64,000 nt of DNA. Source: an uncultured Blautia sp. Its GTDB lineage: Bacteria; Bacillota; Clostridia; Lachnospirales; Lachnospiraceae. The DNA lies in NCBI GenBank assembly GCA_946626695.1, contig CAMOUV010000001.1, forward strand, positions 3,339-67,338. The letters are read 5' to 3'. Below, one piece after another: positions 199 to 20,286 of this stretch. A program made the translations under genes and the position numbers. Each line of letters opens with the position of its first letter. The first letter of the stretch is position 1. The notes under the pieces are model-generated. The model had not been told where the DNA came from and did not search any database. It worked only from the letters and a program-made list of their open reading frames with translations.

Positions 199-1002
199 GT
201 GAAAATGCTTGCTTGCAAGGGCATTTTCACAAACGTCGATGAAAGAACAAAGTTCTTTCATACTTCAGGCGGGAGGTGTTTTCTGATCAAATCAGAATGT
301 GGATTGCGGTCTTTTCTTTCCCGTTGGATTTTCCGGTGGGAGATCATTCCGCTTTTGGTGATCCTGGCAGTGAATATGGTTGTTTATTTCGGTGGGGGCA
401 GGCTGACGCAGAGCTGGAGGCATTATGATCTTACGTTGGCTTTTGACCGGATGGTTCCGTTGATCCCGGGGTTTATCTGGATTTATCTGCTGCCGTCGTA
501 TCTCTTCTGGGGGATCTGTTATATTCTGTCGGCGCAGAAGGGGAAGGATTATTTTTATCGTTTTGTGGCCTGTGATCTGACGATCCATATGATCTGTCTG
601 GTCTTCTTTTTGCTCCTTCCCACCACCAACGTGCGCCCGGAGATCGCGGGGAACACTCTTTCCGAAAGAATGCTGTTGATGACGTATCAGACGGATGGAG
701 GGGATCTGCCTTCCTGTCTGTTTCCGTCGATCCACTGTTATGTAAGCTGGCTCAGTTTCCGGGTGGTTCGGGAGATCCGGACATTGCCCCGATGGGCGTC
801 GCCGGTTTCCTGTGTGATGGCCTTGCTGATCATTGTCTCCACCCAGGTTCTGAAGCAGCATTATATCGTGGATGCCATCGCTGGTGTGGCGCTGGTAGAG
901 ATCTTCTGGCGGTTTTATCGGAAGGGTGAGCGGCATCGGGGAGTGGAGCGTTTTTTTGAAAAAATCAATTCGATTGTCTGGAAAGGAAAACAGGACTTAT
1001 GA
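199..1002 (+). CDS. PAP2-superfamily (Aur1/PAP2_3-like) integral membrane phosphatase/phosphotransferase; true start probably downstream (possibly CTG at 283)
   Basis: Several hydrophobic segments and an FPSIH motif. GGAGG at 272-276 precedes an in-frame CTG at 283, and the computed start at 199 lies inside a hairpin. Confidence 0.7.
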   Translation: MKMLACKGIFTNVDERTKFFHTSGGRCFLIKSECGLRSFLSRWIFRWEIIPLLVILAVNMVVYFGGGRLTQSWRHYDLTLAFDRMVPLIPGFIWIYLLPSYLFWGICYILSAQKGKDYFYRFVACDLTIHMICLVFFLLLPTTNVRPEIAGNTLSERMLLMTYQTDGGDLPSCLFPSIHCYVSWLSFRVVREIRTLPRWASPVSCVMALLIIVSTQVLKQHYIVDAIAGVALVEIFWRFYRKGERHRGVERFFEKINSIVWKGKQDL

Positions 1003-1949
1003 GATGGAACCGATGTACGGTACGAACGACGGTGGAAGCCGAGGAGATGGTGATCTATACCCTGACGGAGCTGGGGATCGAGGGTGTTGAGATTCAGGAC
1101 AGCCAGCCTCTTACCGAGGAGGACAAGGCGCAGATGTTTGTGGATATCATGCCGGACCAGCCGGAGAACGACGGGCGCGCGGTCCTGAATTTTTATCTGG
1201 ACGAGGAGGATCCGGAGGGAATCCTGCCGAAGGCCCGGGAGGCGCTTCAGGAGCTGAAGAGCTTCATGGATATCGGAGAGGGCACCATCGAGGTGTCGAA
1301 GACGGAGGACAAGGACTGGATCAACAACTGGAAGGAGTATTTCCATCAGTTTTATGTGGATGATATCCTGATCGTCCCCTCCTGGGAGGAGGTCCGTCCG
1401 GAGGACCGGGACAAACTGATCCTGCACATCGATCCGGGGACCGCTTTCGGCACGGGAATGCACGAGACGACTCAGCTGGTGATCCGGCAGATCCGGAAAC
1501 AGATCCGGCCCGGCATGCGGGTGCTGGATGTGGGAACCGGATCCGGCATTCTCGGCATGGTTGCCCTGAAGCTGGGGGCGGGCCATGTGATGGCGACGGA
1601 TCTGGATCCCTGTGCGGAAAATGCCGTGCAGGAAAACCTGGAGGCTAACGATATTCCGGCAGAGGATTTTACCCTTCGGATCGGAAATCTGATCGATGAT
1701 CCGGAGACCCAGGTCTGGGCCGGAAAGGAACAGTATGATATCGTGCTGGCGAACATCCTCACGGAGGTGCTTCTGCCGCTGACTCCCGTGGCGGCAGCCT
1801 GCCTGAAAAAGGGCGGTCTCTATATTACCTCCGGCATCCTGGATACCAAGGAGGAGCAGATCGTTTCGGCCGTGCAGAAGGCGGGCCTGACTCTTGTGGA
1901 AGTGACACGCCAGGGCGAATGGGTATCCGTTACGGCCAGAAAGGACTGA
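999..1949 (+). CDS. prmA: 50S ribosomal protein L11 methyltransferase
   Basis: DWINNWKEYF, IDPGTAFGTGMHETT, VLDVGTGSGIL and ANIL motifs. Confidence 0.95.
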   Translation: MRWNRCTVRTTVEAEEMVIYTLTELGIEGVEIQDSQPLTEEDKAQMFVDIMPDQPENDGRAVLNFYLDEEDPEGILPKAREALQELKSFMDIGEGTIEVSKTEDKDWINNWKEYFHQFYVDDILIVPSWEEVRPEDRDKLILHIDPGTAFGTGMHETTQLVIRQIRKQIRPGMRVLDVGTGSGILGMVALKLGAGHVMATDLDPCAENAVQENLEANDIPAEDFTLRIGNLIDDPETQVWAGKEQYDIVLANILTEVLLPLTPVAAACLKKGGLYITSGILDTKEEQIVSAVQKAGLTLVEVTRQGEWVSVTARKD

Positions 1950-1953
1950 GGAC

Positions 1954-2700
1954 ATGCAGCGTTTTTTTGCGGACCCGTCCTGTATCGATGAAGCGGGAAG
2001 AGAGATCCGTATCGGCGGTACGGATGTCAATCATATCCAGAACGTCCTCCGGATGCGCCCGGGAGAAGAGCTCTGGGTCAGCGACGGTGAACGGAAAGAG
2101 TATCATTGCTCGATCCGGGAATATACGAAGGACCAGGTGATCCTGGAGATTCTGTATGCCCAGGAGCCGGAGTACGAGCTGCCCTGCGATCTGTATCTGT
2201 TCCAGTGCATTCCCAAGGGAGACAAGATGGACATGATCGTCCAGAAGGCGGTGGAGCTGGGAGCGGCGGGAATCGTTCCCGTGGAATCAGCCCGCTGCAT
2301 TGTAAAACTGGATGCCAAGAAGGCGGAAAAGAGACAGGCCCGCTGGCAGCAGATCGCCGAGGGGGCGGCAAAGCAGTCCCGGCGGATGCGTATCCCGGCG
2401 GTGGAAAGGGTCCTGTCTTTTCGGGAAGCGCTGGAAAGAGCCGGAGAGCTGGATCTTCTGCTGATTCCCTATGAGCTGGAAAAAGGGATGAAAAGAACAA
2501 AGGAAGTCCTGCAGGAGATCCGCCCGGGTCGTTCTGTGGGGATCCTGATCGGGCCGGAGGGGGGCTTCGAGGCTTCGGAGGTCGCCCTCGCAGAAAGCAG
2601 AGGAGCCGTTCCTGTTTCTCTGGGAAGGCGGATTCTGCGGACGGAAACGGCCGGAATGGCTCTGCTGTCAGTGCTGATGTTCCGGCTGGAAGAGGAGTAA
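1954..2700 (+). CDS. rsmE: 16S rRNA m3U1498 methyltransferase
   Basis: MQRFF start, HIQNVLRM, KAVELG, IGPEGGF, LGRRILRTETA. Confidence 0.95.
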   Translation: MQRFFADPSCIDEAGREIRIGGTDVNHIQNVLRMRPGEELWVSDGERKEYHCSIREYTKDQVILEILYAQEPEYELPCDLYLFQCIPKGDKMDMIVQKAVELGAAGIVPVESARCIVKLDAKKAEKRQARWQQIAEGAAKQSRRMRIPAVERVLSFREALERAGELDLLLIPYELEKGMKRTKEVLQEIRPGRSVGILIGPEGGFEASEVALAESRGAVPVSLGRRILRTETAGMALLSVLMFRLEEE

Positions 2701-6849: not shown

Positions 6850-7122
6850 ATGGCAGATACAAATCTTGGCAATACGCAGTTTTTCAGTACGAAGCCTGAG
6901 CAGGAGCTGCAGGTGAAGGAGGTTCTCGATCTGGTATACAATGCCATGGAAGAAAAGGGGTATAATCCTGTGAACCAGATCGTGGGTTATATCATGTCGG
7001 GAGATCCGACCTACATCACCAGCCATAAAGGCGCCCGCAGCATGATCATGAAGGTGGAACGGGACGAGCTGGTGGAAGAACTGCTGTACGAATATATTAA
7101 GAACCGGGCCTGGGAAGAGTGA
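6850..7122 (+). CDS. IreB/ReoM (UPF0297) family regulatory phosphoprotein
   Basis: [24 protein letters not shown] signature. Confidence 0.92.
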
Positions 7123-7124
7123 GC

Positions 7125-7550
7125 ATGCGGATACTTGGACTGGACTATGGATCCAAAACGGTGGGTGTGGCCGTGAGTGATCCTCTGGGACTGACCGCCC
7201 AGGGGCTGGAGACCATCTGGCGGGAGAAGGAGAACCATCTGCGCCGGACGCTTACACGGCTTTCGGAGATCATCCGGGAATACCAGGTGACGGAGATCGT
7301 CCTTGGATATCCCAAAAATATGAATAACACAGTCGGCGAGCGGGCTTTGAAATCTCTGGAATTCCGGCAGATGCTGGAGAGACGGACAGGCCTGCCTGTT
7401 GTTATGTGGGACGAACGGCTCACGACAGCGGCTGCGGAGCGCGTACTGACGGAAGCGGAGGTGCGCAGGGAAAACCAAAAACAATATCTGGACCAGATGG
7501 CTGCGGTGTTCATCCTGCAGGGATATCTGGACCGGAAACAGAAGATGTAA
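7125..7550 (+). CDS. ruvX: YqgF/RuvX family pre-16S rRNA nuclease / putative Holliday junction resolvase
   Basis: [36 protein letters not shown]. Confidence 0.93.
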
Positions 7551-7565
7551 ACAAGGAAAAATAAG

Positions 7566-7823
7566 ATGGATAAGATCAGTTTTGTGACAGAAGACGGCAC
7601 GACGGTGGAATTTTTCGTGGAGGAACAGACCTGTATTGCGGGAAAAAACTACCTGCTTGTTTCGGATTCCCTGGATGAGGAGGCAAACGCCTACATCATG
7701 CGGGATATTTCAGATCCTGACAGTACGGATGCCTGTTATGAAATGGTAGAGGATGATTCGGAGCTGGCCGCCGTGTCAAAAGTATTCCAGTCACTTCTGG
7801 AGGATGCTGATCTGGAATTCTGA
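7566..7823 (+). CDS. DUF1292 family protein
   Basis: Small acidic protein in the conserved ireB-ruvX-DUF1292 order. Confidence 0.8.
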   Translation: MDKISFVTEDGTTVEFFVEEQTCIAGKNYLLVSDSLDEEANAYIMRDISDPDSTDACYEMVEDDSELAAVSKVFQSLLEDADLEF

Positions 7824-7834
7824 ACCATGGAGGT

Positions 7835-9739
7835 ATGTTTTTGAACAGCAATAAAAACCGTAACAGACATTTTGTCAATAATAAAAATCATCAGGGAAAA
7901 GACGCGAAGAAGATTCCGGCAAAGAATACCGGTAAAAATGCCGAACCTGTTAAGAATAAAACCAAAGAACCTACCAGGAATACCGCTGCCAAGAACAGCA
8001 GAAACAATACAAAAAGCCCATCCCGTCCCGTGACGGGAAAATTCTTCCCGGTGCAGACCAAGGGGAACGGAAAAAAAGGAAAGAAGCATGTCTCTCGGCT
8101 GAAAATCATCCCCCTGGGCGGTCTGGAGCAGATCGGCATGAACATCACGGTCTTCGAGTATGGGGACAGCATCGTTGTGGTGGACTGCGGGCTTTCCTTC
8201 CCGGAAGATGATATGCTCGGCATCGATCTGGTGATCCCGGATATCACCTATCTGAAGGAAAATATTCATAAAGTGAAGGGGTTTGTGATCACCCACGGAC
8301 ATGAGGATCATATCGGCGCCCTTCCCTATGTCCTGCGGGAAGTCAACGTCCCGATCTATTCCACCAAGCTGACCCTCGGCCTGATCACCAACAAGCTGAA
8401 AGAGCACGACATGGTCAAGACGACTAAGATGAAGGAGGTCCGTCATGGCCAGGTGATCAATCTGGGCGATTTCTCCATCGAATTCATCAAGACCAATCAC
8501 AGCATTCAGGATGCGTCGGCCCTGGCGATCTATTCGCCGGTGGGGATCGTTGTCCATACAGGCGATTTCAAGGTGGACTATACACCCGTCTTCGGGGATG
8601 CCATCGATCTGCAGCGTTTTGCGGAGATCGGCAAAAAGGGCGTGCTGGCTCTGATGTGCGACAGCACCAACGCCGAAAGACCGGGCTTTACCATGTCCGA
8701 ACGGACCGTGGGTCATGTGTTCGACAACCTGTTTAATGAAAACCGGAATTCCCGGATCATCATTGCAACCTTCGCTTCCAACGTGGACCGGGTGCAGCAG
8801 ATCATCAATACAGCCTACCGGTATGGCCGGAAGGTCGCCGTGGAAGGCCGCAGCATGGTCAACATCATCGCGGTGGCTTCGGAGCTGGGTTATCTGCGGG
8901 TTCCGGACCAGACCCTGATCGAGATCGATGAAGTCCGGAATTATCCGGACGAGCAGGTGGTGCTGATCACCACCGGAAGCCAGGGAGAGTCCATGGCGGC
9001 GCTTTCCAGAATGGCAGCGAGCATTCATAAAAAGATTACCATCAAGCCGAACGATACCATTATCTTCAGTTCGCATCCCATCCCGGGCAACGAGAAAGCG
9101 GTCTCCAAGGTGATCAACGAGCTTTCCATGAAGGGAGCCAAGGTCATTTTCCAGGATGCCCACGTATCCGGACATGCCTGCCAGGAGGAGATCAAGCTCC
9201 TTTATTCCCTGGTACGGCCGCGCTATGCGATCCCGGTGCACGGGGAATACCGTCATCTGACCGCCCAGGCCCATGTGGTGGAAGAGCTGGGGATCCCGAA
9301 GGACAATATCTTCATCCTTTCCTCCGGGAATGTGCTGGAGCTGGATGAGAGCGGCGCTTCCGTGACCGGAAGCGTACAGACCGGGGCGATCCTGGTGGAC
9401 GGCCTCGGCGTCGGCGATGTCGGCAATGTGGTCCTGCGGGACCGTCAGAGACTGGCGGAGGACGGCATCATCATCGTGGTGATGACACTGGAACGCCGGA
9501 GCAATGTGGTGCTGTCGGGACCGGATATCGTGTCCCGGGGCTTTGTGTATGTCAAGGAATCGGAGGATCTGATGGAGCATGCCAGGGAGGCCGTGCAGGA
9601 AGCCCTGGACACCTGCAGCGCCAGACGGATCAACGACTGGGGCCGGATCAAGAACGAGGTGAAGGACGCCCTTTCTTCCTACGTGTGGAAACGCACGAAA
9701 AGAAGCCCGATGATCCTTCCCATCATCATGGAGGCATAA
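7835..9739 (+). CDS. rnj: Ribonuclease J with a Lys/Asn-rich N-terminal extension
   Basis: IIPLGGLEQIGMN, THGHEDHIG, HTGDFKVD, HVSGHA, PMILPIIME. Confidence 0.95.
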   Translation: MFLNSNKNRNRHFVNNKNHQGKDAKKIPAKNTGKNAEPVKNKTKEPTRNTAAKNSRNNTKSPSRPVTGKFFPVQTKGNGKKGKKHVSRLKIIPLGGLEQIGMNITVFEYGDSIVVVDCGLSFPEDDMLGIDLVIPDITYLKENIHKVKGFVITHGHEDHIGALPYVLREVNVPIYSTKLTLGLITNKLKEHDMVKTTKMKEVRHGQVINLGDFSIEFIKTNHSIQDASALAIYSPVGIVVHTGDFKVDYTPVFGDAIDLQRFAEIGKKGVLALMCDSTNAERPGFTMSERTVGHVFDNLFNENRNSRIIIATFASNVDRVQQIINTAYRYGRKVAVEGRSMVNIIAVASELGYLRVPDQTLIEIDEVRNYPDEQVVLITTGSQGESMAALSRMAASIHKKITIKPNDTIIFSSHPIPGNEKAVSKVINELSMKGAKVIFQDAHVSGHACQEEIKLLYSLVRPRYAIPVHGEYRHLTAQAHVVEELGIPKDNIFILSSGNVLELDESGASVTGSVQTGAILVDGLGVGDVGNVVLRDRQRLAEDGIIIVVMTLERRSNVVLSGPDIVSRGFVYVKESEDLMEHAREAVQEALDTCSARRINDWGRIKNEVKDALSSYVWKRTKRSPMILPIIMEA

Positions 9740-9740
9740 T

Positions 9741-10079
9741 ATGGACCGGATCGAGATGCTTACGGAGCAGCTTCTGCAGGCGATCCTGGAGAGCGATATC
9801 TATAAGGACTACGTGGAACAGGAAGAAAGACTGGAACATATCCCCGGACTCAAAGACCGGGTGAACCGGTTCCGGGCCGATAATTTCCTGATGCAGCAGG
9901 AGAATCCGTCGGATCTCTATGCGGTCTCGGAGATCATGGAACAGCGGTCCGCCGAGCTTCGGAAGGTTCCGGAGGCAAACGCCTATCTGGAGGCGGAGCT
10001 GGCGGTCAACAAAATGATGCAGAAAATCTGCGGGACCCTGTTTGCGGGCATCCGGTACAGCGTACCGGAGGATGTGTGA
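9741..10079 (+). CDS. YlbF/YmcA (RicAFT-like) family regulator
   Basis: Small helical protein with AYLEAELAVNKMMQ; typical position after rnj. Confidence 0.7.
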   Translation: MDRIEMLTEQLLQAILESDIYKDYVEQEERLEHIPGLKDRVNRFRADNFLMQQENPSDLYAVSEIMEQRSAELRKVPEANAYLEAELAVNKMMQKICGTLFAGIRYSVPEDV

Positions 10080-10094
10080 GAAAGGAGACCGGTC

Positions 10095-10499
10095 ATGGGA
10101 AATGCGAAGGATAAAGCCGGAAAGGTAGGTCTTGCGCTGGCGGGCGGCGTCTTTCATATCGCATTGTATGCGTGTGTTGCGGTGCTTTTGTTCTGGCTGG
10201 GCAAAACCGCTTACTACTTCGGCTACGATGTTTTCAACCAGCAGGCCATGAATCCCGGCGCCGGGCAGGAGGTCACGGTGGTGATCCAGGAAAACAGTAC
10301 GCCCTACAAGATCGGAAAGACCCTGGAGAGCAAGGGTCTGATCCGCAATGCCTATGTTTTTGTGGTACAGGAACGGCTTTCCAATTATCACGGAAAGCTG
10401 CAGCCGGGAACCTATCTGCTGAGCACGGCGTATACGCCGAACCGCATCATGGGAATCCTGGCGGGGGATAAAGAACAGGAAGGGGCCGCAAGCTCGTGA
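10095..10499 (+). CDS. Short MltG/YceG-like membrane protein (N-terminal part only)
   Basis: One TM helix, then IGKTLESKGLIRN and KLQPGTYLLS motifs; occupies the mltG (yrrL) position before the O-methyltransferase. Confidence 0.7.
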   Translation: MGNAKDKAGKVGLALAGGVFHIALYACVAVLLFWLGKTAYYFGYDVFNQQAMNPGAGQEVTVVIQENSTPYKIGKTLESKGLIRNAYVFVVQERLSNYHGKLQPGTYLLSTAYTPNRIMGILAGDKEQEGAASS

Positions 10500-11152
10500 C
10501 CGACGGAGAGAGACTGAAGGTTTTTATCGACTCCTTTGACAAAGGAAATACCGGGTTTCTGGACAGCCTGGAACAGGAAGCCCTGGAGATGCATGTGCCT
10601 GTGATCCGCAGGGAGACACAGAAGCTGATCCGGACTCTTCTTGCGCTGCAGAAACCGAAGCAGATTCTGGAGGTGGGGACGGCCGTTGGCTTCTCCACAC
10701 TTCTTATGTGTGAGTATGGTCCTGCGGATCTTCATGTCACCACCATCGAAAATGATGAAGAACGGATCCGCAAGGCTGCCGACAACTTCCGGAGAGCGGG
10801 AAGAGAAGAACAGATCACGCTTCTGGCCGGAGATGCCCAGGATGTCCTGGAACGTCTCGCGGGGCCCTTCGACCTGATCTTTATGGATGCGGCGAAGGGA
10901 CAGTATATCCGCTGGCTGCCGGAGCTGCTGCGGCTCATGCGGCCCGGAAGTCTTCTGATTTCGGACAATGTCCTTCAGAACGGAGATCTGGTGCAGTCCC
11001 ATTATCTGGTGGAACGGCGGAAACGGACCATCTATAAACGGATGCGGGAATATCTGCATGCCCTTACCCATGATCCCGCTCTGGAGACGGTGATCCTTCC
11101 GTCGGGGGACGGAGCTTCACTGAGTGTAAAACTGGAGGAACCTGGAGAATGA
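10496..11152 (+). CDS. trmR: O-methyltransferase (TrmR/YrrM family, tRNA 5-hydroxyuridine methyltransferase)
   Basis: ILEVGTAVGFS, FDLIFMDAAKGQY, LISDNVL; followed by a U32 gene. Confidence 0.8.
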   Translation: MTDGERLKVFIDSFDKGNTGFLDSLEQEALEMHVPVIRRETQKLIRTLLALQKPKQILEVGTAVGFSTLLMCEYGPADLHVTTIENDEERIRKAADNFRRAGREEQITLLAGDAQDVLERLAGPFDLIFMDAAKGQYIRWLPELLRLMRPGSLLISDNVLQNGDLVQSHYLVERRKRTIYKRMREYLHALTHDPALETVILPSGDGASLSVKLEEPGE

Positions 11153-12381
11153 AAAAACCGGAACTGCTGGTGCCTGCCAGCAGCCTTGAGGTGCTGAAGA
11201 TCGCGGTGCTTTACGGAGCGGACGCGGTCTATATCGGCGGGGAAGCCTACGGCCTTCGGGCGAAGGCCAGAAATTTTTCCATGGAGGATATGGAGAAGGG
11301 CATTCGTTTTGCCCATGAACACGGGGTCAAGGTGCACGTGACCGTCAATATCCTGGCGCATAACCGTGATCTGGCCGGTGTGCGGGAATATCTGCAGGAG
11401 CTGAAAGGCCTGGCTCCGGATGCCCTGATCATCGCGGATCCCGGAATTTTCACCCTGGCCCGGGAGATCTGTCCGGAGATCGACATTCATATCAGCACCC
11501 AGGCCAACAACACCAATTCGGAGACCTTCCGGTTCTGGCACAGACTGGGAGCCCGGCGGGTCGTGACAGCCAGGGAGCTTTCCCTGGAGGAAATCCGGGA
11601 GATCCGCGCATCCGTGCCGGAGGATCTGGAGATCGAGACGTTTATTCACGGGGCCATGTGCATTTCCTATTCCGGCCGCTGTCTGCTGAGCAATTTTCTG
11701 ACCGGCAGGGATGCGAACCGGGGAGAATGCACCCATCCCTGCCGCTGGAAATATTCCCTGATGGAAGAAACACGGCCGGGAGAGTACATGCCGGTTTTTG
11801 AAAATGAAAGAGGAACCTATATTTTTAATTCCAAGGATCTGTGCATGATCGAGCATCTGGAGGATCTGGCGGAGAGCGGTGTGGACAGCATGAAGATCGA
11901 GGGCAGGATGAAGACGGCCCTGTATGTCGCCACCGTGGCCCGGACCTACCGGAGAGCCATCGACGATCTGATGAAGGATCCGGCCTTGTATCAGGCCCAC
12001 ATGGACTGGTACAGGGAACAGATCTCCAACTGTACCTACCGGCAGTTCACCACCGGTTTCTTTTATGGCAGACCGACGGAGGAAAGCCAGATCTACGACA
12101 GCAATACCTATATCCGGGAATACACCTATCTCGGATACGCGGAGGAGGTATGCCCGGACGGACGGGTGCGTATCACGCAGCGGAATAAATTTGTGACCGG
12201 GGAGACCATAGAGATCATGAAGCCGGACGGACGGGACATTCCCGTGCAGATCCGCTCGATCCGGGACGAAAGTGGCGCAGAGGTGGAAAGCGCGCCCCAT
12301 CCGCAGCAGGTGCTCTACGTGGATCTGGGACCGGGAATCGAGACCTATGACATTCTTCGCCGTCCGGAGGACGGCCAGTGA
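11149..12381 (+). CDS. U32 family protein (TrhP-like tRNA hydroxylation)
   Basis: KPELLVPA, GADAVYIGG, HGAMCISYSGRC, NRGECTHPCRW, SMKIEGRMK. Confidence 0.9.
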   Translation: MKKPELLVPASSLEVLKIAVLYGADAVYIGGEAYGLRAKARNFSMEDMEKGIRFAHEHGVKVHVTVNILAHNRDLAGVREYLQELKGLAPDALIIADPGIFTLAREICPEIDIHISTQANNTNSETFRFWHRLGARRVVTARELSLEEIREIRASVPEDLEIETFIHGAMCISYSGRCLLSNFLTGRDANRGECTHPCRWKYSLMEETRPGEYMPVFENERGTYIFNSKDLCMIEHLEDLAESGVDSMKIEGRMKTALYVATVARTYRRAIDDLMKDPALYQAHMDWYREQISNCTYRQFTTGFFYGRPTEESQIYDSNTYIREYTYLGYAEEVCPDGRVRITQRNKFVTGETIEIMKPDGRDIPVQIRSIRDESGAEVESAPHPQQVLYVDLGPGIETYDILRRPEDGQ

Positions 12382-12399
12382 CAGAAAAGGGGACCCGAA

Positions 12400-15300
12400 T
12401 TGAAAAAGAGGATCGATGAGCTTTTGAATGGAGAATTTGAATATGAGCCGCCCGTTCTCATGTTTTCCCAGGAAAGCGTGGAGGTGGAGCTTCCGGCCGG
12501 CGAGACAGCCCAGAGAGAGCTGTATATCGGCACGGAACAGAACCGGAAGATCCGCGGGTATGTGACGTCCTCTGACCGGAGACTGGTGCCGGGACTGGAA
12601 ATCTTTTCCGGGACCACCATACGCCTTCCCTTCGGCATCGATGCGGTGGGCCTGCTTCCCGGCGAAGTCCGTGAGGAGTGGCTCTGCTTCACCACGAATG
12701 TGGGCGAGTATAAGATCCCGGTCACGATCCGTACCGGATCGGGGGTCCTGTCCACATCGGAGGGGGAGGTCCGCTCCCTCGATGATTTTGCGAAGATCGC
12801 GGAGGAGGATTTCCGGGAAGCTTATCGAATGTTCACGGATCCGGAGTTTGAGAGACTGTGCGAAAAGCAGTCCGACGGGAGGATCCGTTCCTTGTATGCC
12901 GGTCTGTCCGCGCAGCCGGTCACCTATCAGAACCTGGAGGAATTCCTGATCGCCGCCGGCCGGAAGGAGAAGGTCACGGTGCGACTCCAGGAATACCGGA
13001 GAGAAATTTTCGAGATCACCGAATCCACCCGGGAGTCGGTGCTCCTTACCCGCAGCGGCTGGGGCCATCTGCGGATGGATGTGGTGGTGGAAGGCGGCTT
13101 TATCGAGACGGAAAAGCGTGTGATCACCGATGAAGATTTTATCGGAAGCTCCTACAACCTGGCCTATGTGATCCGGCAGGAAAAGCTGGGAGAGGGCAAT
13201 CAGTACGGAGGGATCCGCATCATCACGCCCTATCAGGAGCTGTTCTTTGAGGTGGTCGCCTCCAGGACCATGCGCTCGGGGGTGCAGATCCATCTGGAGG
13301 AACAGAAATGCCGGCTGAATCTGATGCGGGATTATCTGGATTACCGCTGCCAGACGCTGGACTGTCCCGCCTGGGCGGCGCAGTCGCATTATGAACTGAA
13401 CCGGCTGAAGGATTCGGGCTTTGATTATCCGGAATACCGGATCTATGAGGTTTTTGTCCTCTGGAAGGAGGGCAAAAAGGAAGAGGCAGCGGATCTGCTG
13501 AGAGAGTTTCACAGCCAGTCCTTTATCCGTGACAACCCGGAGATCGCCGGACTGTATCTGTATCTCTGCTCCGAGGCCGGCCTGTACAAGGACAAGGATG
13601 CGGTCCTCCGCAGAATCCAGGCTTTGCGGGCCCGGAACGAAAAAAGCTTTGTCCTGCAGGAGATCCTGCTTCAGGTGGATCCGGAGCTGGTGCGGCTGCC
13701 CTCGAGGGCACTGTACGAGCTGGAGGAGCTTTTTGAGAGAGGCTGCCGGAACCCGGTCCTGTATCTGGAGGCCTGGGTGCGCATCTGCATGGATGAGAGC
13801 CTCCTGCACCGGCTCAGCCGTTTCTGGATCCAGGTATTTCTGTTCGCGGGACGGAAAGGGCTTCTGACCCAGGAGCTTACCAACCGTTTCACCTTCCTGT
13901 CCGGAAACGAAAAAGAATTCCGGGAGAGCCTGTACCGGGCGCTGGTGTACGGGTACGAGGCGTATCCCTCCGACGATTCGCTGGAGGCGATCTGCCAGTA
14001 TATCATGCGCGGAAACCCGCGGAAGAAGGAGTATTTCCGCTGGTTCGAGCTGGCCGTGGAGCGGGACATCCGTCTCACAAGGGTGTTTGAATATTATATG
14101 GAGACCCTGGACATTTCCTATCACCGGGAGCTGCCCAAGTCTCTTCTGATGTATTTCAACTACAACAACAGCAATCTGGGGGATACAAGAAAAGCCTACA
14201 TCTATGCGGATGTGATCGCGAACCGCGATCAGGATCCCCAGACCTACAAAAGCTATCAGGAGACCATCCGTTCCTTTGCCGCCCAGAAGATCCGGGAGGG
14301 CAGGGTCAGCGAGGATTATGCGCTCCTGTATCAGGAATATCTCCATTCACCGGAAAATCAGGAGGAGGCACGGATCCTTTCGGGCATCCTTTTCGTCAAT
14401 CGTCTGTACTGCGACAGCAAGAAGGTCCGCTGTGTGATCGTGCGGCACAGCCAGCTGGTGCGGGAAGAGCTGTATCCCTGTGTCCAGGGCGTTGCGTACC
14501 CGCGGATCTACACGTCGGACGCGGCTGTCCTGTTCCAGGACGACAAGCAGCGCCGTTACAGCGCCACGGTGGATTACAATCTGAAGAAACTGATGGACGA
14601 GCGGGATCTCATCCCGCAGATCCTTGAAAAACGATATACGGAGCCCGGGATCCTTCTGAATTACTGTGAGACCCGGGAGATCACCGAACAGAATCTGGCG
14701 GTTTTCCAGCAGGTGGTCCAGTCCGATTCCTTCACGCCGGAATACCAGAAAGAGATCCGCAGGAGGATCCTTTCCTGGTACCGGGAGAATGTGCGGGGCT
14801 CCGAGCTGGACGGACTTCTGAAAAAGCTGGACTATCGGGAATATGCCCTGGTGGACCGGAAGACGCTTCTGGAGATCCTGATCGAAAGGGGACTGTTCCG
14901 CCAGGCCTACAGGATCGTGGAGGAGTTCGGGGCAGAAGAGGTGAGCCGGCCGGATCTGCTGAAGCTGGTAAGCCGCATGATCATCCGGCGGGATATGCGG
15001 GAGGATGACGAGCTGATCGCGCTTTCTTCCCAGGTGTTCCGGAACGGACTTTATGACGAAATGATCCTCCGTTATCTGATGATGTACCGCAACGGTCCGG
15101 TGGATGAGCTGTTTGCCATCCGCAAAAGCGCCGAGGGCTTTGAACTGGACACCTATTCCTTTGACGAGAAGATCCTGCAGCTTCTGATGCTGACCCAGGA
15201 TTACCGGAAGGAAGGGGAAAAGGTCCTGGAAAGCTATGTCCGTGAGTCCGGCAGGGAGAAAATCATCGGGGCGTATCTGACCCAGCTTTCCTACGGCGCG

Positions 15301-15933
15301 TTCGTGAAGGAGCACGGGATCAGTCCCTTTGTGCGGAGCTGTCTGGAGACGGCCTTCCGGAACGAATGGGAAGTGGATCAGGTCTGCCATCTGGCGCTGT
15401 TCAAATCCCTGGTGCGGGAGAAGGACAGCCGGGGCGATTATAAAGAAATGAAAGAAAAGCTGCTCCGGGAGTGCATGGAAAAAGGAATGGTATTCGGCTT
15501 CTTCCGGAAGCTTCCCCAGGATATCCTGAGCCCCTGGCAGCTGGATGACAAAACCTTTGTGGAATGTCATGCCGGGCCCGATGCCTCGGTGACCCTGTTC
15601 TACCGGCTGGATTCGGGACTGGGGGATGACGGGAATTATGTGTCCCAGCCGCTTGCCCCGGTGTATCAGGGGATTTTTGTGAGAACCTTTACCTTGTTTT
15701 ACGGAGAAACGCTGCGGTATTATTTTGTCATCGAGGAAAACGGGAAGAGCCGTAAGACCTCGGAGCGCGTGCTTACCATGAACCGGGTGGAGGGGAATCC
15801 TTCCTCCCGTTATCAGCTGATCAATCAGCTGCTGTCCTCCCGGAAGCTGAAGAAGGACCGGGAGACGGCTGCGGGCCTGAAACAGTATCTCCGTCAGGAA
15901 CAGTATGTCAATGAAATGTTCAGACTGCAATAA
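12400..15933 (+). CDS. DUF5717-family large cytoplasmic protein (beta-rich N- and C-terminal domains, long helical core)
   Basis: 1177 aa ORF with native codon usage, TTG start after GGGG RBS. MKKRIDELLNGEFEY start and C-terminal FTLFYGETLRYY recalled as DUF5717. Confidence 0.7.
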   Translation: MKKRIDELLNGEFEYEPPVLMFSQESVEVELPAGETAQRELYIGTEQNRKIRGYVTSSDRRLVPGLEIFSGTTIRLPFGIDAVGLLPGEVREEWLCFTTNVGEYKIPVTIRTGSGVLSTSEGEVRSLDDFAKIAEEDFREAYRMFTDPEFERLCEKQSDGRIRSLYAGLSAQPVTYQNLEEFLIAAGRKEKVTVRLQEYRREIFEITESTRESVLLTRSGWGHLRMDVVVEGGFIETEKRVITDEDFIGSSYNLAYVIRQEKLGEGNQYGGIRIITPYQELFFEVVASRTMRSGVQIHLEEQKCRLNLMRDYLDYRCQTLDCPAWAAQSHYELNRLKDSGFDYPEYRIYEVFVLWKEGKKEEAADLLREFHSQSFIRDNPEIAGLYLYLCSEAGLYKDKDAVLRRIQALRARNEKSFVLQEILLQVDPELVRLPSRALYELEELFERGCRNPVLYLEAWVRICMDESLLHRLSRFWIQVFLFAGRKGLLTQELTNRFTFLSGNEKEFRESLYRALVYGYEAYPSDDSLEAICQYIMRGNPRKKEYFRWFELAVERDIRLTRVFEYYMETLDISYHRELPKSLLMYFNYNNSNLGDTRKAYIYADVIANRDQDPQTYKSYQETIRSFAAQKIREGRVSEDYALLYQEYLHSPENQEEARILSGILFVNRLYCDSKKVRCVIVRHSQLVREELYPCVQGVAYPRIYTSDAAVLFQDDKQRRYSATVDYNLKKLMDERDLIPQILEKRYTEPGILLNYCETREITEQNLAVFQQVVQSDSFTPEYQKEIRRRILSWYRENVRGSELDGLLKKLDYREYALVDRKTLLEILIERGLFRQAYRIVEEFGAEEVSRPDLLKLVSRMIIRRDMREDDELIALSSQVFRNGLYDEMILRYLMMYRNGPVDELFAIRKSAEGFELDTYSFDEKILQLLMLTQDYRKEGEKVLESYVRESGREKIIGAYLTQLSYGAFVKEHGISPFVRSCLETAFRNEWEVDQVCHLALFKSLVREKDSRGDYKEMKEKLLRECMEKGMVFGFFRKLPQDILSPWQLDDKTFVECHAGPDASVTLFYRLDSGLGDDGNYVSQPLAPVYQGIFVRTFTLFYGETLRYYFVIEENGKSRKTSERVLTMNRVEGNPSSRYQLINQLLSSRKLKKDRETAAGLKQYLRQEQYVNEMFRLQ

Positions 15934-15944
15934 GGAGCTATGGA

Positions 15945-17210
15945 ATGAATGAGATTCGGGATCTGATCATCGGAATCGATTTTGGAAAAGAAAATACACA
16001 GCTCTGCTACTATGACCGCAAGGCGGATGAGCCCCGCTCGATCTCCATGAAGGTGGGAGCCAATGTCTACGAAGCTCCAACGGCTTTATGCCGGAGAGCC
16101 GGGCAGGCCGAATACTCGGTGGGAATCGAGGCGGAATATTTTTCCCGGGAGAAAAACGGTTATCTGATCGAGAATCTCTACGAGATCACCGGGAAGGAGG
16201 AGCCGGTGCAGGTGCTGGAGGAATCCAGGGAGCCCTGGGAGCTGGCGGCTTCTTTTATCAAAGGCATGCTGCGGTATCTCGGGGTGATGGAAGTGATCCG
16301 GAACACCCGCTGCCTGTGCATCGCCACCCCGTCTCTCACGGATATCCGGGTGAAAAACCTGAAGCGTGCCTGCACATCCCTCGGGATCCCGGAGGACCGT
16401 TTTCTGCTGATGGATTACGGGGAAAGCTTCTTTTATTATGTGATGACGCAGAAAAAAGAGGTGGTGAACCGCAGTGTGGCCTGGTACATTTTTGACGGCA
16501 ATGAGGTCACCTTCCGGAAGCTTTCGGTCAACAACGCCAGAAAGCCCGTCCTGGTACAGCTTGAGGAGCCGGTAACGACGACGCTGCCGGAGACGGCCCG
16601 GGAAAGAGATTCGGCCTTCTGCACGTTTATCCAGGAAACGGTGGGGACGGAGCTGTTCTCCAGCATTCAGATCAGCGGGGAAGGCTTTGACACCGACTGG
16701 GCGAAACAGGCGGTAAAGCTTCTGTGTTTTCAGAAACGGAAGGTATATTATGGAAACAATCTTCATGCGGGAGGAGCCTGCGCGGCGGGAAAGGAACGCA
16801 TGGAGGACCGGAATCTTAAGAATATCCGCTTCTTGAGCCAGTCCATTGTCAGGGAAGACGTGGGGATGGAAATGCTGGTCATGGGGTCTCCGGCCTATGT
16901 GCCGCTGATCACCGGCGGAGAAAACTGGTATGAATGCAGCAGCCGCTGCGAGCTGATCCTCAATAAGACCGAAGACCTGGTGTTTGTGGTTCTGCGGATG
17001 GGCGAGACCGAGAAAAAGCGGGTCGTGATGCATCTTCCCGGACTGCCGGCAAGACCGGACAAGACGACCCGGCTTCTGCTGGAGCTGGCCTATGTTTCGC
17101 CGGACCGCTGCCGCATCACGGTGACGGATCTCGGCTTTGGCGATATGTTCCCCTCCAGCGGAAAGGTCTGGAAGGAGACAGTGAACTGGACAGAGGAGGG
17201 AGTATCATGA
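15945..17210 (+). CDS. DUF5716-family protein; divergent Hsp70/actin-like fold
   Basis: N-terminal IIGIDFG (cf. DnaK IIGIDLG); C-terminal LPGLPARPDKTTRL...VTDLGFG (cf. DnaK SBD-beta). Confidence 0.7.
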   Translation: MNEIRDLIIGIDFGKENTQLCYYDRKADEPRSISMKVGANVYEAPTALCRRAGQAEYSVGIEAEYFSREKNGYLIENLYEITGKEEPVQVLEESREPWELAASFIKGMLRYLGVMEVIRNTRCLCIATPSLTDIRVKNLKRACTSLGIPEDRFLLMDYGESFFYYVMTQKKEVVNRSVAWYIFDGNEVTFRKLSVNNARKPVLVQLEEPVTTTLPETARERDSAFCTFIQETVGTELFSSIQISGEGFDTDWAKQAVKLLCFQKRKVYYGNNLHAGGACAAGKERMEDRNLKNIRFLSQSIVREDVGMEMLVMGSPAYVPLITGGENWYECSSRCELILNKTEDLVFVVLRMGETEKKRVVMHLPGLPARPDKTTRLLLELAYVSPDRCRITVTDLGFGDMFPSSGKVWKETVNWTEEGVS

Positions 17211-18010
17211 CCGGATATATCCTTTGTCAGACAAAACGGACCGAAGTTCCCTTTTATCTGGAGAATATCAGCACCAACATCTACTCTCTGGAGGAGCTTT
17301 GCTATTTTCTGTACAACAATCTGTATCTTGTGGATGAGACTGTGATCCGGGAGGATCTGTGCCGCTGGATCGACACGGAGCTGCATCTGCCCGCCTTGGC
17401 GGCGAAGCTCCGGCCTCATCTGGGCAAGTTTGCGGATCTGCAGGATTTCCTGTATCCGATTTTCAAGGAGATCAATTACCTGACCTATGAGGAGCTGCGG
17501 AATCTGAACGGCCGCCTTGCCTCCCTGGAGGGGGAGACCCTCAGTGTGCGGAAGAAGCTGAAGGGGGATGCCCTGGTGCAGAACGGAATGTATGTCAATG
17601 CCATCCGTTCCTACCGGGAGATCCTTTCTTATGCGGAGTATCGTGTCGAACCGGAGCAGATGACCGAGGGAGAAAGAGAATTCGCATCGAAGGTCTGGCA
17701 TAATCTGGGCTGTGCCTATGCCCGCCTCTTTCAGATGGAAAAAGCGCTGGAATGCTTCTGGAAAAGCTTCGGGATCAGCGGAAAACGGGAGGAACTGAAA
17801 GTTTACCTGCTGGCCTTCCGGAGTGTGAGGACACCGCTGGAATATGAGAGCCGCCTGGCGGAGACCGGAGCGGATCAGGAAATGACGGCGGAGATCGAGC
17901 AGGAGCTGGATCGCTTTGCCCGTCTTCCGGAGACCCCGGTGTACGGGCGGAATATCGACAGTACCCTGGAACGGATCACCCGGGAATATCACAGGAGCAC
18001 AGGATCATAA
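17207..18010 (+). CDS. Conserved hypothetical protein with a TPR-like segment
   Basis: Overlaps the previous stop (ATGA). GDALVQNGMYVNAIRSY and KVWHNLGCAYARLFQMEKALECF are TPR-like helices. Confidence 0.75.
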   Translation: MTGYILCQTKRTEVPFYLENISTNIYSLEELCYFLYNNLYLVDETVIREDLCRWIDTELHLPALAAKLRPHLGKFADLQDFLYPIFKEINYLTYEELRNLNGRLASLEGETLSVRKKLKGDALVQNGMYVNAIRSYREILSYAEYRVEPEQMTEGEREFASKVWHNLGCAYARLFQMEKALECFWKSFGISGKREELKVYLLAFRSVRTPLEYESRLAETGADQEMTAEIEQELDRFARLPETPVYGRNIDSTLERITREYHRSTGS

Positions 18011-18018
18011 TTTTCCGG

Positions 18019-18047
18019 TTGCTTTTGAGAAAGGCCTGTTATATAAT
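18019..18047 (+). promoter_or_regulatory. sigma-A promoter of purC-purB-purA
   Basis: TTGCTT-17 bp-TATAAT. Confidence 0.7.
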
Positions 18048-18116
18048 ACGTGGGTGTGTTAGCCTGAAACATCATTATGAACAATCTGTGTACATCGAAA
18101 GGAACAGGTGCTGGAC

Positions 18117-18824
18117 ATGGAAAAAAGAGAACAGCTCTACGAAGGAAAAGCAAAGAAGGTTTTTGCCACAGAGGATCCGGATGTCGTGATCGTCAGCTAC
18201 AAGGATGATGCCACCGCATTCAACGGAGAGAAGAAAGGCACGATCCAGGGCAAAGGCGTGATCAACAACCGCATGACGAATCTTGTTTTCCGGAAGTTTG
18301 AAGAAGCCGGCATTCCGACGCATTTTATTTCGGAGCTGAATGACAGAGAGACAGCGGTCAAAAAGGTTGACATCGTCCCGCTGGAGGTGATCATCCGGAA
18401 CGTAGCCGCAGGCAGCTTTTCCAAGAGAATGGGCGTGGCGGAAGGAACGGCGCTTCTCTGCCCGATCCTGGAGTTCAGCTACAAGAACGATGCGCTGGGC
18501 GATCCTTTTATCAACGATGATTATGCTCTGGCCCTGGGCCTTGCCACAAAGGAGGAGCTGGACCAGATCCGTGAATATACCCTGAAGGTCAACGAGATCA
18601 TGAAGGAGTATTTCCTTCAGGCCGGTCTGAAGCTGATCGACTTCAAGATCGAGTTCGGCCGTTATCATGGCCAGATCCTGCTGGCGGACGAAGTATCCCC
18701 GGATACCTGCCGTCTCTGGGATGTGGAGACCAACGAAAAACTGGATAAAGACCGTTTCCGCCGGGATCTCGGCAATGTGGAAGAGGCCTACAACGAAGTC
18801 TTCCATCGTCTGGGACTGGATTGA
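18117..18824 (+). CDS. purC: SAICAR synthetase
   Basis: [50 protein letters not shown]. Confidence 0.96.
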
Positions 18825-18852
18825 TCCCGCAGAAGAATATAGGGAGAACAGT

Positions 18853-20286
18853 ATGAGCACAGACCGTTATACAAGCCCCCTGTCCGAGCGCTATGCCAGC
18901 AGGGAAATGCAGTATATATTTTCCCAGGATATGAAATTCCGCACCTGGCGGCGCCTGTGGATCGCCCTGGCCGAGACGGAAAAAGAGCTTGGTCTCGATA
19001 TTACCCAGGAGCAGATCGACGAGCTGAAGGCCCATGCGGAAGACATCAACTATGATGTGGCTGTCGAGAGAGAAAAAGTGGTTCGGCATGATGTGATGTC
19101 CCATGTGTACGCCTATGGCGTGCAGTGCCCCAAGGCCAAGGGGATCATCCATCTTGGCGCCACCTCCTGCTATGTGGGAGACAATACGGACATGATCGTC
19201 ATGCGGGAAGCCCTCCGCCTGATCCGGCGCAAGCTGGTCAACGTGATCGGGCGTCTGGCCTCCTTCGCGGACGAGTACAAGGCGCTTCCGACCCTGGCCT
19301 TCACCCATTTTCAGCCGGCCCAGCCCACCACGGTGGGGAAAAGAGCCACCCTCTGGATCCAGGAATTCATGATGGACCTGGAGGATCTGGAATATGTGCT
19401 GGGAACCCTGAAGCTTCTGGGATCCAAGGGAACCACCGGAACCCAGGCCAGCTTTCTGGAGCTGTTTGAAGGGGATCAGGAGAAGATCGACCGGATCGAT
19501 CCGATGATCGCGGAGAAAATGGGCTTTGAAGCCTGCTATCCCGTGTCCGGGCAGACCTATTCGAGAAAGGTGGACACCCGGGTCCTGAACATTCTTGCGG
19601 GAATCGCATCCAGCGCCCATAAAATGTCCAATGACATCCGTCTCCTGCAACATCTGAAGGAGGTGGAGGAGCCCTTCGAGAAAACCCAGATCGGTTCCTC
19701 GGCCATGGCGTACAAACGAAACCCGATGCGGAGCGAGCGGATCGCTTCGCTGTCCAGATATGTGATGATCGATGCCCTGAATCCGGCCATAACCGCTGCG
19801 ACCCAGTGGTTTGAGCGGACTCTGGATGATTCCGCCAACAAGAGACTTTCCGTGCCGGAAGGCTTCCTGGCGGTGGACGGGATCCTGGACCTGTGCCTGA
19901 ACGTGGCGGATGGTCTTGTGGTCTATCCGAAGGTCATCGAAAAGCACCTGCGTTCGGAGCTTCCTTTTATGGCCACCGAAAATATCATGATGGATGCGGT
20001 AAAGGCCGGCGGTGACCGTCAGGAGCTGCATGAACGGATCCGGACCCTGTCCATGGAAGCCGGACGTCATGTGAAGGAAGAGGGACGCGACAATGATCTG
20101 CTGGAGCTGATCGCGGCGGATCCGGCTTTTGACCTGACTCTGGAGGAGCTTCAGGCCGCGATGGATCCCTCCCGTTATACAGGACGGGCGGCGGAACAGA
20201 CCGGACGGTATCTGGATACCGTGGTACGTCCGGTGCTGGCAGAGCGAGAGGACCTTCTCGGGCTTACAGCCGAGATCAAGGTATGA
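18853..20286 (+). CDS. purB: Adenylosuccinate lyase
   Basis: SPLSERYAS, RHDVMSH, GSSAMAYKRNPMRSE signature. Start at ATG 18853 after GGAG. Confidence 0.96.
   Translation: MSTDRYTSPLSERYASREMQYIFSQDMKFRTWRRLWIALAETEKELGLDITQEQIDELKAHAEDINYDVAVEREKVVRHDVMSHVYAYGVQCPKAKGIIHLGATSCYVGDNTDMIVMREALRLIRRKLVNVIGRLASFADEYKALPTLAFTHFQPAQPTTVGKRATLWIQEFMMDLEDLEYVLGTLKLLGSKGTTGTQASFLELFEGDQEKIDRIDPMIAEKMGFEACYPVSGQTYSRKVDTRVLNILAGIASSAHKMSNDIRLLQHLKEVEEPFEKTQIGSSAMAYKRNPMRSERIASLSRYVMIDALNPAITAATQWFERTLDDSANKRLSVPEGFLAVDGILDLCLNVADGLVVYPKVIEKHLRSELPFMATENIMMDAVKAGGDRQELHERIRTLSMEAGRHVKEEGRDNDLLELIAADPAFDLTLEELQAAMDPSRYTGRAAEQTGRYLDTVVRPVLAEREDLLGLTAEIKV

Follow-up and report, generated by a model that had tools for sequence, protein, structure and literature searches.

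DUF5716 of the Lachnospiraceae is an Hsp70 derivative without lid and subdomain IIB, encoded between two conserved partner genes

The stretch of DNA analysed here (the window, 64 000 nucleotides in full) comes from an uncultured Blautia sp. of the family Lachnospiraceae (contig CAMOUV010000001.1, positions 3339 to 67 338 of the forward strand). It contains a run of co-directional, tightly packed genes that leads from the gene for RNase J into a module of three genes, encoding a DUF5717 protein, a DUF5716 protein and a tetratricopeptide repeat (TPR) protein (Table 1). The middle gene of the module is the subject of this work. Its ribosome-binding site, read from the sequence as AAGGAG at 15932–15937 (+), overlaps the stop codon of the DUF5717 gene (15931–15933), and its own stop codon shares 4 nt with the start of the TPR gene. 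The 421-aa product passes the gathering threshold of PF18980 (DUF5716_C) with 312 bits against a cut-off of 34.7 (E 4.2e-93, residues 124–415), a family that Pfam catalogues as a domain of unknown function; residues 1–123 have no Pfam assignment, and NCBIfam has no model for the protein. The original prediction, made from the letters of the window, took the protein to be a divergent, lid-less Hsp70, possibly impaired as an ATPase and dedicated to its operon partners. We confirmed that the DUF5716 protein is an Hsp70 derivative, homologous by profile and by fold.

Searches with the single 421-aa sequence gave nothing meaningful against the PDB (one chance match at E 1) and, against Pfam at E ≤ 10, no family except DUF5716_C; the Pfam HSP70 model (PF00012) was matched at E ≤ 10 neither by the whole protein nor by its N-terminal 195 residues. 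Thus, the relationship to Hsp70 is detectable solely by profile-level methods. When 1.84 billion cluster representatives were searched exhaustively, 1191 relatives were found at E ≤ 1e-3, and an alignment of 111 full-length relatives was the basis of the profile, of the structure model and of all column counts given below. The 111-sequence profile matched DnaK chains in the PDB, the best being 2v7y (E 1.9e-5), with residues 9–154 placed on DnaK 4–142. A weak second stretch placed residues 352–398 on 415–461 of DnaK, in the β-sandwich of the substrate-binding domain (SBD-β), and paired L.GLP.RP..TTRL with DnaK LTGIPPAPRGVPQIEV and DLGFG with DLGTG. The two resemblances on which the original prediction had been built were recovered in this way: the N-terminal string DLIIGIDFGKENTQLCYY (residues 6–23), likened to the DnaK phosphate-1 loop, is present and falls on the phosphate-1 loop of DnaK in the alignment, and the C-terminal strings LPGLPARPDKTTRLLLEL (residues 364–381) and RITVTDLGFG (residues 390–399), likened to SBD-β, were given the same pairing by the profile. 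Comparison of the family alignment with the genome's own DnaK alone, using hhalign, gave a probability of 94% (E 1.3e-7, residues 7–196 on DnaK 3–183). With four true Hsp70s as the template, the probability was 99.4% (E 1.4e-21) over 390 columns, with query residues 5–413 on DnaK 1–480. This template consisted of the genome's own DnaK and three operon paralogues, all passing the Pfam HSP70 model, and included no DUF5716 member.

An AlphaFold2 model was built from the 111-sequence alignment and had a predicted local distance difference test score (pLDDT) of 96.0 and a predicted TM-score (pTM) of 0.92. When the model was compared with the PDB using Foldseek, only Hsp70s were found among the 50 matches listed (E 1.4e-20 to ∼1e-14, probability 1.00). 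The matches listed include DnaK, BiP, Hsc70, mortalin, Ssb, Ssz1 and Sse1, and the alignments cover both the nucleotide-binding domain (NBD) and SBD-β. The top query TM-scores, 0.60–0.61, were obtained with 7kru, 7krv and 7krw, which are structures of DnaK in the 'stimulating state' with the SBD docked, whilst undocked ADP-state structures scored 0.42–0.48. Since the docked structures score highest and the pTM is high, the model predicts a docked arrangement of NBD and SBD. The actin-like NBD and the SBD-β sandwich, the two elements that an Hsp70 fold implies, are both present in the predicted structure and in the hhalign alignment. The protein is a member of the Hsp70 superfamily, with an actin-like NBD, a linker and an SBD-β sandwich that are homologous to those of DnaK.

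Two large parts of DnaK are missing from this fold. The SBD-β sandwich stops at the point where the DnaK lid would start: the chain ends 7 residues past the last SBD-β strand (E408–414), and the model contains no helix after residue 288. The SBD-α lid is absent, as had been proposed from the length of the protein. The other deletion lies within the NBD. When aligned by MAFFT with DnaK and four Hsp70 paralogues from the operons, the query has a gap of ∼100 columns between ...AFCTFIQE (∼residue 232) and TVGTELFSS..., and the same ∼100-column gap is found in the hhalign alignment with the four Hsp70s. We take the missing piece, by Hsp70 domain maps, to be NBD subdomain IIB. In Hsp70s this subdomain carries the adenine and ribose contacts as well as the surface to which the exchange factor GrpE binds. 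In the model, a single helix joins the third strand of subdomain IIA to the strand preceding the adenosine motif. The NBD is not the canonical one of four subdomains, as IIB is absent. The linker region lies opposite the VLLLD linker of DnaK in the hhalign alignment with the four Hsp70s. The reduction noted originally, loss of the lid, was thus correct and understated, as subdomain IIB, the phosphate-1 threonines and the equivalent of Lys70 have also been lost.

The nucleotide-site motifs of Hsp70 were followed across the family. In the phosphate-1 loop, Gly10 and Asp12 are kept, and 108 of the 111 sequences (97%) have D or E at position 12. Positions 14–17 are variable; the GTT positions are occupied by G/N/S, D/N/E and E/D/K, and by G-K-E in the window protein, in which the two threonines have become Lys-Glu. 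The equivalent of Lys70, residue 64, is L, E, I, V or K across the family and Glu64 in the window protein. The counterpart of DnaK Glu171 is either Met156 or Asp157, according to the alignment method, and is D in just 39% of the sequences; in the same region, a Glu160-Ser161 pair is conserved (88% and 92%). In phosphate-2, the GGGT loop is absent family-wide and the hairpin is two residues shorter, and position 182 is acidic in 66% of the family and Ile in the window protein. In place of the adenosine motif VGG(S/Q)TR, the family has a motif of its own, LxGxGFxxxW, in which Gly245 is invariant, Gly247 is found in 77% of the sequences, Phe248 in 106/111 and Trp252 in 104/111. IFDGNE (residues 182–187) and ISGEGF (residues 243–248) had been read in the window as degenerate phosphate-2 and adenosine motifs, and this degeneracy proved to be family-wide in the 111 sequences.

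The window protein does not carry the canonical Hsp70 motif set, the corresponding residues being GKEN, Glu64, Asp157 or Met156, IFDGNE and SGEGFD. Because the motifs are degenerate and IIB is lost, canonical binding and hydrolysis of ATP are very unlikely, and the DUF5716 protein is, to judge from its sequence, very probably a pseudo-ATPase. The earlier wording, 'possibly ATPase-impaired', is supported by the motif loss and is probably too cautious, as this loss points to a protein with no canonical nucleotide site at all.

Within SBD-β, the most conserved signature spans residues 364–399, in which Leu364, Pro368, Arg370, Arg376, Asp395, Gly397, Phe398 and Gly399 are near-invariant in the 111 sequences. 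This segment was aligned to L.GIPPA.RG.PQIEV...DLGTG of DnaK by the profile and by hhalign alike. The positions that match the hydrophobic groove residues of DnaK in the hhalign alignment with the four Hsp70s are still hydrophobic.

The proteins encoded on either side are constant companions of DUF5716. The DUF5717 protein matches the Pfam families DUF5717_N (E 4.5e-247) and DUF5717 (C-terminal, E 7.6e-94), and no match in the PDB was obtained either with its single sequence or with a 12-sequence profile. The TPR protein matches TPR_1, TPR_2 and TPR_8 at residues 162–187. Linkage was assessed in 30 genera picked across the score range: in 30/30, the DUF5717 C-terminal domain is encoded directly upstream of DUF5716 on the same strand, and, again in 30/30, a homologue of the TPR protein is encoded directly downstream. 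In the three genomes without DUF5716, DUF5717 and the TPR partner are likewise absent. In addition, 16 natural DUF5716-TPR fusions exist, two of which have C-terminal halves homologous to the window's TPR protein (E 1e-40 and 2e-30). The linkage on both sides, the joint loss in three genomes and the natural fusions together uphold the proposal that DUF5716 is dedicated to its operon partners. Some relatives (P0124, P0155 and P0221) have long low-complexity C-terminal tails rich in Pro, Glu and Ala instead of a TPR fusion.

FKBP51 (E 7e-5 to 8e-4) and Sec72 (E 0.04–0.07) have TPR domains to which the TPR region of the partner bears a weak resemblance. TPR domains of the FKBP51/Sec72 type bind the tails of Hsp90 and Hsp70. 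A carboxylate clamp was considered for the TPR partner and was not established, the similarity to FKBP51 and Sec72 being mostly one generic consensus TPR motif.

A fourth gene lies 3' of the TPR gene in 14 of the 30 genera (for example at 870–2060 (+) of locus L017), and its product, of 396 aa, has long coiled coils and two transmembrane helices. No match for this coiled-coil gene was found in the window's genome (94% complete), where purC follows the TPR gene instead, and it is also absent from the genera whose TPR proteins are most similar to that of the window. As 14/30 genera have it and the window's genome does not, we regard the fourth gene as accessory to the module and not part of its core.

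Within the Lachnospiraceae, PF18980 was found in 148/151 genomes and 147/150 genera. Each carrying genome has a single copy, barring one split copy and one weak extra match below threshold. In other orders of the class, PF18980 was found in 0/240 scored genomes, these being 240 of the 241 out-of-family genomes. The near-universal single-copy presence and the housekeeping neighbours argue for a core cellular function of DUF5716 rather than one in defence.

Several neighbours of the module in the window deserve comment in their own right (Table 1). The RNase J reading frame codes for 634 aa and the RNase J models align only from residue 87–90 on, which indicates either an N-terminal extension of ∼89 aa or a true start further downstream. 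In Bacillus, the synteny is mltG-trmR-trhP, with a full-length mltG. The 134-aa YceG-like protein (10095–10499, +) occupies the mltG slot of this order and matches just positions 1–66 of the 275 in the YceG/MltG model; it is possibly an MltG-like protein that is truncated or consists of the N-terminal part only. The genes for the TrmR/YrrM-like O-methyltransferase and the U32 TrhP-like protein (10496–12381, +) overlap by 4 nt and lie directly 5' of the DUF5717 gene, with a gap of 19 nt. The trmR/trhP gene pair is associated with tRNA ho5U/mo5U34 modification. Downstream of the module, purC occupies the same place in other genera too (loci L016 and L017). The listed purB reading frame (18667–20286) overlaps purC and the match to the purB model begins only at residue 72; the true start is probably near 18880. 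A scan for sigma-70 promoters and terminators over positions 7000–19000 gave counts at background level; a weak promoter-like sequence, TTGCTT-17 nt-TATAAT, is present at 18019–18047, in the region between the TPR gene and purC.

Table 1. Features of the DUF5716 protein and of the surrounding genes, in window positions
Feature	Position	Strand	Remarks
DUF5716 gene	15945..17210	+	421 aa; Hsp70-derived, without lid and subdomain IIB
Reduced actin-like NBD	15945..16814	+	residues 1 to about 290; subdomains IA, IB and IIA only
Phosphate-1 remnant IIGIDFGKENT	15966..15998	+	residues 8–18; aligned to DnaK IIGIDLGTTNS
Phosphate-2 remnant YIFDGNEVTF	16485..16514	+	residues 181–190; aligned to VYDLGGGTFD
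Single helix in place of subdomain IIB and its two flanking helices	16596..16643	+	residues 218–233
Adenosine-motif remnant IQISGEGFDTDW	16665..16700	+	residues 241–252; aligned to VLLVGGSTRIPAV
Interdomain linker region	16815..16844	+	residues about 291–300, short strand 294–297; boundaries approximate
SBD-β sandwich	16845..17189	+	residues about 301–415; model strands E304 to E414
Most conserved SBD-β signature, LPGLPARPDKTTRL...DLGFG	17034..17141	+	residues 364–399
RNase J (rnj)	7835–9739	+	
YlbF-like protein	9741–10079	+	
Short YceG-like protein	10095–10499	+	
TrmR-like O-methyltransferase	10496–11152	+	
Single U32/TrhP-like protein	11149–12381	+	
DUF5717	12400–15933	+	1177 aa from TTG start; database copy 1169 aa
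TPR protein	17207–18010	+	267 aa
purC	about 18117–18824	+	then purB, purA; 3' of TPR gene

Longer forms of DUF5716 occur in extended operons of other families of the Lachnospirales (L013, 1093–15990, and L014, 3099–16929). In addition to a split DUF5717, these operons encode two Hsp70s (∼555 aa and ∼540–560 aa), a fusion of Hsp70 to a von Willebrand factor A (vWA) domain, a GrpE-like protein (635 or 279 aa) and a DUF5716 protein of 494–526 aa. L013 also has a gene for a TPR protein, and the genes scanned in the two operons yielded no J-domain. The three extended-operon Hsp70s are lid-less and have intact motifs (GIDxGTTNS, DFGGGT and VGGS in those of L013). The long DUF5716 of L013 (526 aa) passes the Pfam thresholds of both DUF5716_C and HSP70 and retains IIB, and its motifs are already degenerate (GIDLGNDSS, DFASREIRGG and GGGFEMLW). 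A maximum-likelihood tree unites the short forms in one clade (100/99) and places the long forms between this clade and the active Hsp70s. Since long forms that still bear IIB are already degenerate and branch in between, loss of the motifs preceded the deletion of IIB. The long forms belong to the same Pfam family as the short ones, group with them in the tree, share the degenerate motifs and occupy the same place beside DUF5717 and the TPR protein; they differ in length, in retaining IIB and in being accompanied by three active Hsp70s, a GrpE-like protein and the vWA fusion, companions that are all absent from the window's genome. The window's family has neither the active Hsp70 paralogues nor the GrpE-like factor, and DnaK is the only true Hsp70 in the window's genome. 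A second match of the HSP70 model in this genome was rejected as an Hsp70, being MreB. The dnaK gene itself lies on the same contig (25–1767), ∼18 kb upstream of the DUF5716 gene, and encodes a protein of 627 aa with intact motifs and the C-terminus ...DDVVDADYKEV.

Three known systems offer a comparison. With DnaK and the canonical Hsp70s, DUF5716 shares NBD subdomains IA, IB and IIA, the linker, an eight-stranded SBD-β sandwich, the GIDxG start and the L.G(I/L)P...D.G.G signature; it differs from them in having no IIB, no lid, no phosphate-1 Thr pair, no Lys70, no GGGT loop and no adenosine motif. Ssz1 (HSPA14) of the ribosome-associated complex (RAC) is a lid-less Hsp70 that binds ATP without hydrolysing it and for which the canonical cycle is impossible (PMC7083937). 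It is a stable subunit whose SBD-β is embraced and filled by strands of a dedicated partner, these strands and a pseudo-substrate in SBD-β having a stabilising effect (PMC7083937). DUF5716 resembles Ssz1 as a lid-less, non-canonical Hsp70, and the Ssz1 structures 6sr6 and 7x3k are among the Foldseek matches listed. However, Ssz1 has all four NBD subdomains, binds ATP and has a ribosomal J-protein as its partner, whereas DUF5716 is without IIB, its partners are DUF5717 and the TPR protein, and the binding of a partner to its SBD is a supposition of ours. As no J-domain is encoded in the neighbouring genes and IIB is missing, DUF5716 is not an Ssz1-type protein; Ssz1 would be its nearest counterpart in function, and the resemblance is one of functional analogy only. 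The GAP1-N2 GTPase conflict systems share an Hsp70-GrpE theme (Kaur et al., eLife 2020; PMC7159879). They recall the DUF5716 loci in that conserved prokaryotic gene neighbourhoods bring together Hsp70s, GrpE, repeat-rich proteins and TPR fusions; these systems differ in being GTPase-defined, patchy in distribution and equipped with effectors, whilst the DUF5716 module is near-universal in one family. No GAP1-N2-type GTPase was found among the neighbouring genes from RNase J through purA, a scan of the neighbouring genes found no J-protein or GrpE encoded in the window's module, and DUF5717, DUF5716 and the TPR protein had no match in PADLOC-DB at E ≤ 0.01. A search of the literature found no paper on DUF5717, a sole and unrelated paper for DUF5716, and no paper combining Lachnospiraceae, Hsp70, TPR and operon.

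We favour the reading, at a probability of roughly 60%, that DUF5716 is a non-cycling Hsp70-fold adaptor, docked, in complex with a DUF5717 scaffold and the TPR protein. As modelled, the protein keeps IA, IB, IIA, the linker and a complete SBD-β and has lost IIB, the lid and the ATP-binding and catalytic residues, and it would no longer run the ATP-driven cycle of opening and closing. Fixed in the docked state, it would serve as an adaptor that forms a stable complex with both partners, the DUF5717 scaffold of 1177 aa and the TPR protein of 267 aa, and the hydrophobic groove of SBD-β may be a permanent or low-affinity site that takes up either a client or an extended stretch of one of the partners. 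With regard to the adaptor or chaperone originally proposed, the fold and the tie to the partners stand, whilst the activity itself is one that we infer from sequence. A model of the natural fusion P0141, with a pLDDT of 91 and a pTM of 0.79, is on the side of a partnership with the TPR protein. Some points weigh against a docked, nucleotide-free complex of this kind. The high pTM of the fusion model depends on just the 16 fused sequences. Genes that are linked or fused point to partners in function, which need not form a stable complex. Finally, five residues around the former cleft are conserved (Asp12, Glu160, Ser161, Gly245 and Gly247), and these could, on the strength of their conservation, form a non-canonical ligand site.

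Such a site is the starting point for the alternative that DUF5716 is a still-active, very divergent ATPase chaperone, which would cycle substrates like a minimal Hsp70 by means of a remodelled site composed of Asp12, Glu160/Ser161 and Gly245-x-Gly247-Phe248. Conservation at these positions (Asp/Glu12 97%, Glu160 88%, Ser161 92%, Gly245 invariant, Gly247 77%) is as this alternative would have it, as is the retention of the linker and of a complete SBD-β. However, the family as a whole has lost the two phosphate-loop signatures, the equivalent of Lys70 and all of the IIB lobe, the window protein has Ile182 where 66% of its relatives have an acidic residue, and the module encodes neither an exchange factor nor a J-protein, and we consider an active ATPase unlikely. 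It is also improbable, in our estimation, that DUF5716 is a regulator or recruiter of the housekeeping DnaK. The pseudo-Hsp70/TPR pair would in this case bring DnaK in trans to clients held by DUF5717, and DnaK would replace the dedicated Hsp70s and the GrpE-like factor of the sister-family operons. In the extended operons, the same DUF5717/DUF5716/TPR core is indeed surrounded by three intact Hsp70s and by a GrpE-like protein, DnaK is the sole true Hsp70 left in the window's genome, and the TPR region is weakly like those of FKBP51 and Sec72; but that similarity is dominated by one generic motif with no carboxylate clamp established, no J-domain is present, and the data contain no sign of a physical link between DnaK and the module.

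The Hsp70-vWA fusion, the GrpE-like protein and the TPR proteins of the extended operons recall the GAP1-N2 theme (PMC7159879) and could speak for a role in conflict or defence against phages, in a system of the Hsp70/GrpE/vWA/TPR type. A single copy in 147/150 genera is unlike patchy defence islands, though, and the neighbours are housekeeping genes (rnj, trmR-like, trhP-like, purC, purB and purA); with no PADLOC matches and no GTPase or effector domain in the module, we find a role in conflict very hard to credit. The remaining alternative, a filament-forming protein of the acetate and sugar kinase/Hsp70/actin (ASKHA) superfamily that is like actin or MreB and not a relative of Hsp70, could appeal to the shared actin-like ATPase fold and to the reduced NBD. 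Against it, all 50 structural matches listed are Hsp70s with alignments that include SBD-β, the profile matches are DnaK-specific, the genome has its own MreB, and intermediate members of the family pass the Pfam HSP70 threshold; we regard it as the least credible of the alternatives and next to negligible.

Beyond the non-cycling adaptor itself, a wider and distinctly more tentative proposal, one that we would not bet on at even odds, is that the DUF5717/DUF5716/TPR triad is an undescribed core machine present throughout the Lachnospiraceae, in which an Hsp70 fold has been turned into an ATP-independent clamp, and that it is the reduced end-point of a separate multi-Hsp70 system. That system, a prokaryotic one made up of three lid-less Hsp70s, a private GrpE-like factor and a scaffold, would exist next to DnaK, HscA and HscC. 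After the reduction, the task of the pseudo-Hsp70 would be to keep a client or a segment of a partner on the giant scaffold, from where it might be passed to the housekeeping DnaK.

DUF5716 is an Hsp70 derivative and represents neither a new fold nor a new principle. Hsp70s are among the best-studied protein machines, and to our knowledge bacterial pseudo-Hsp70s are essentially undescribed. The loss of both the lid and IIB shows how far the Hsp70 fold can shrink whilst remaining under strong selection. The series from nine-gene multi-Hsp70 operons to a three-gene remnant is a natural experiment on how an ATP-driven chaperone becomes a static scaffold. The Lachnospiraceae are a major family of the human gut microbiota, and a core, taxon-defining module found in ∼98% of the sampled genera of this family is a direct target for the genetics of gut commensals.

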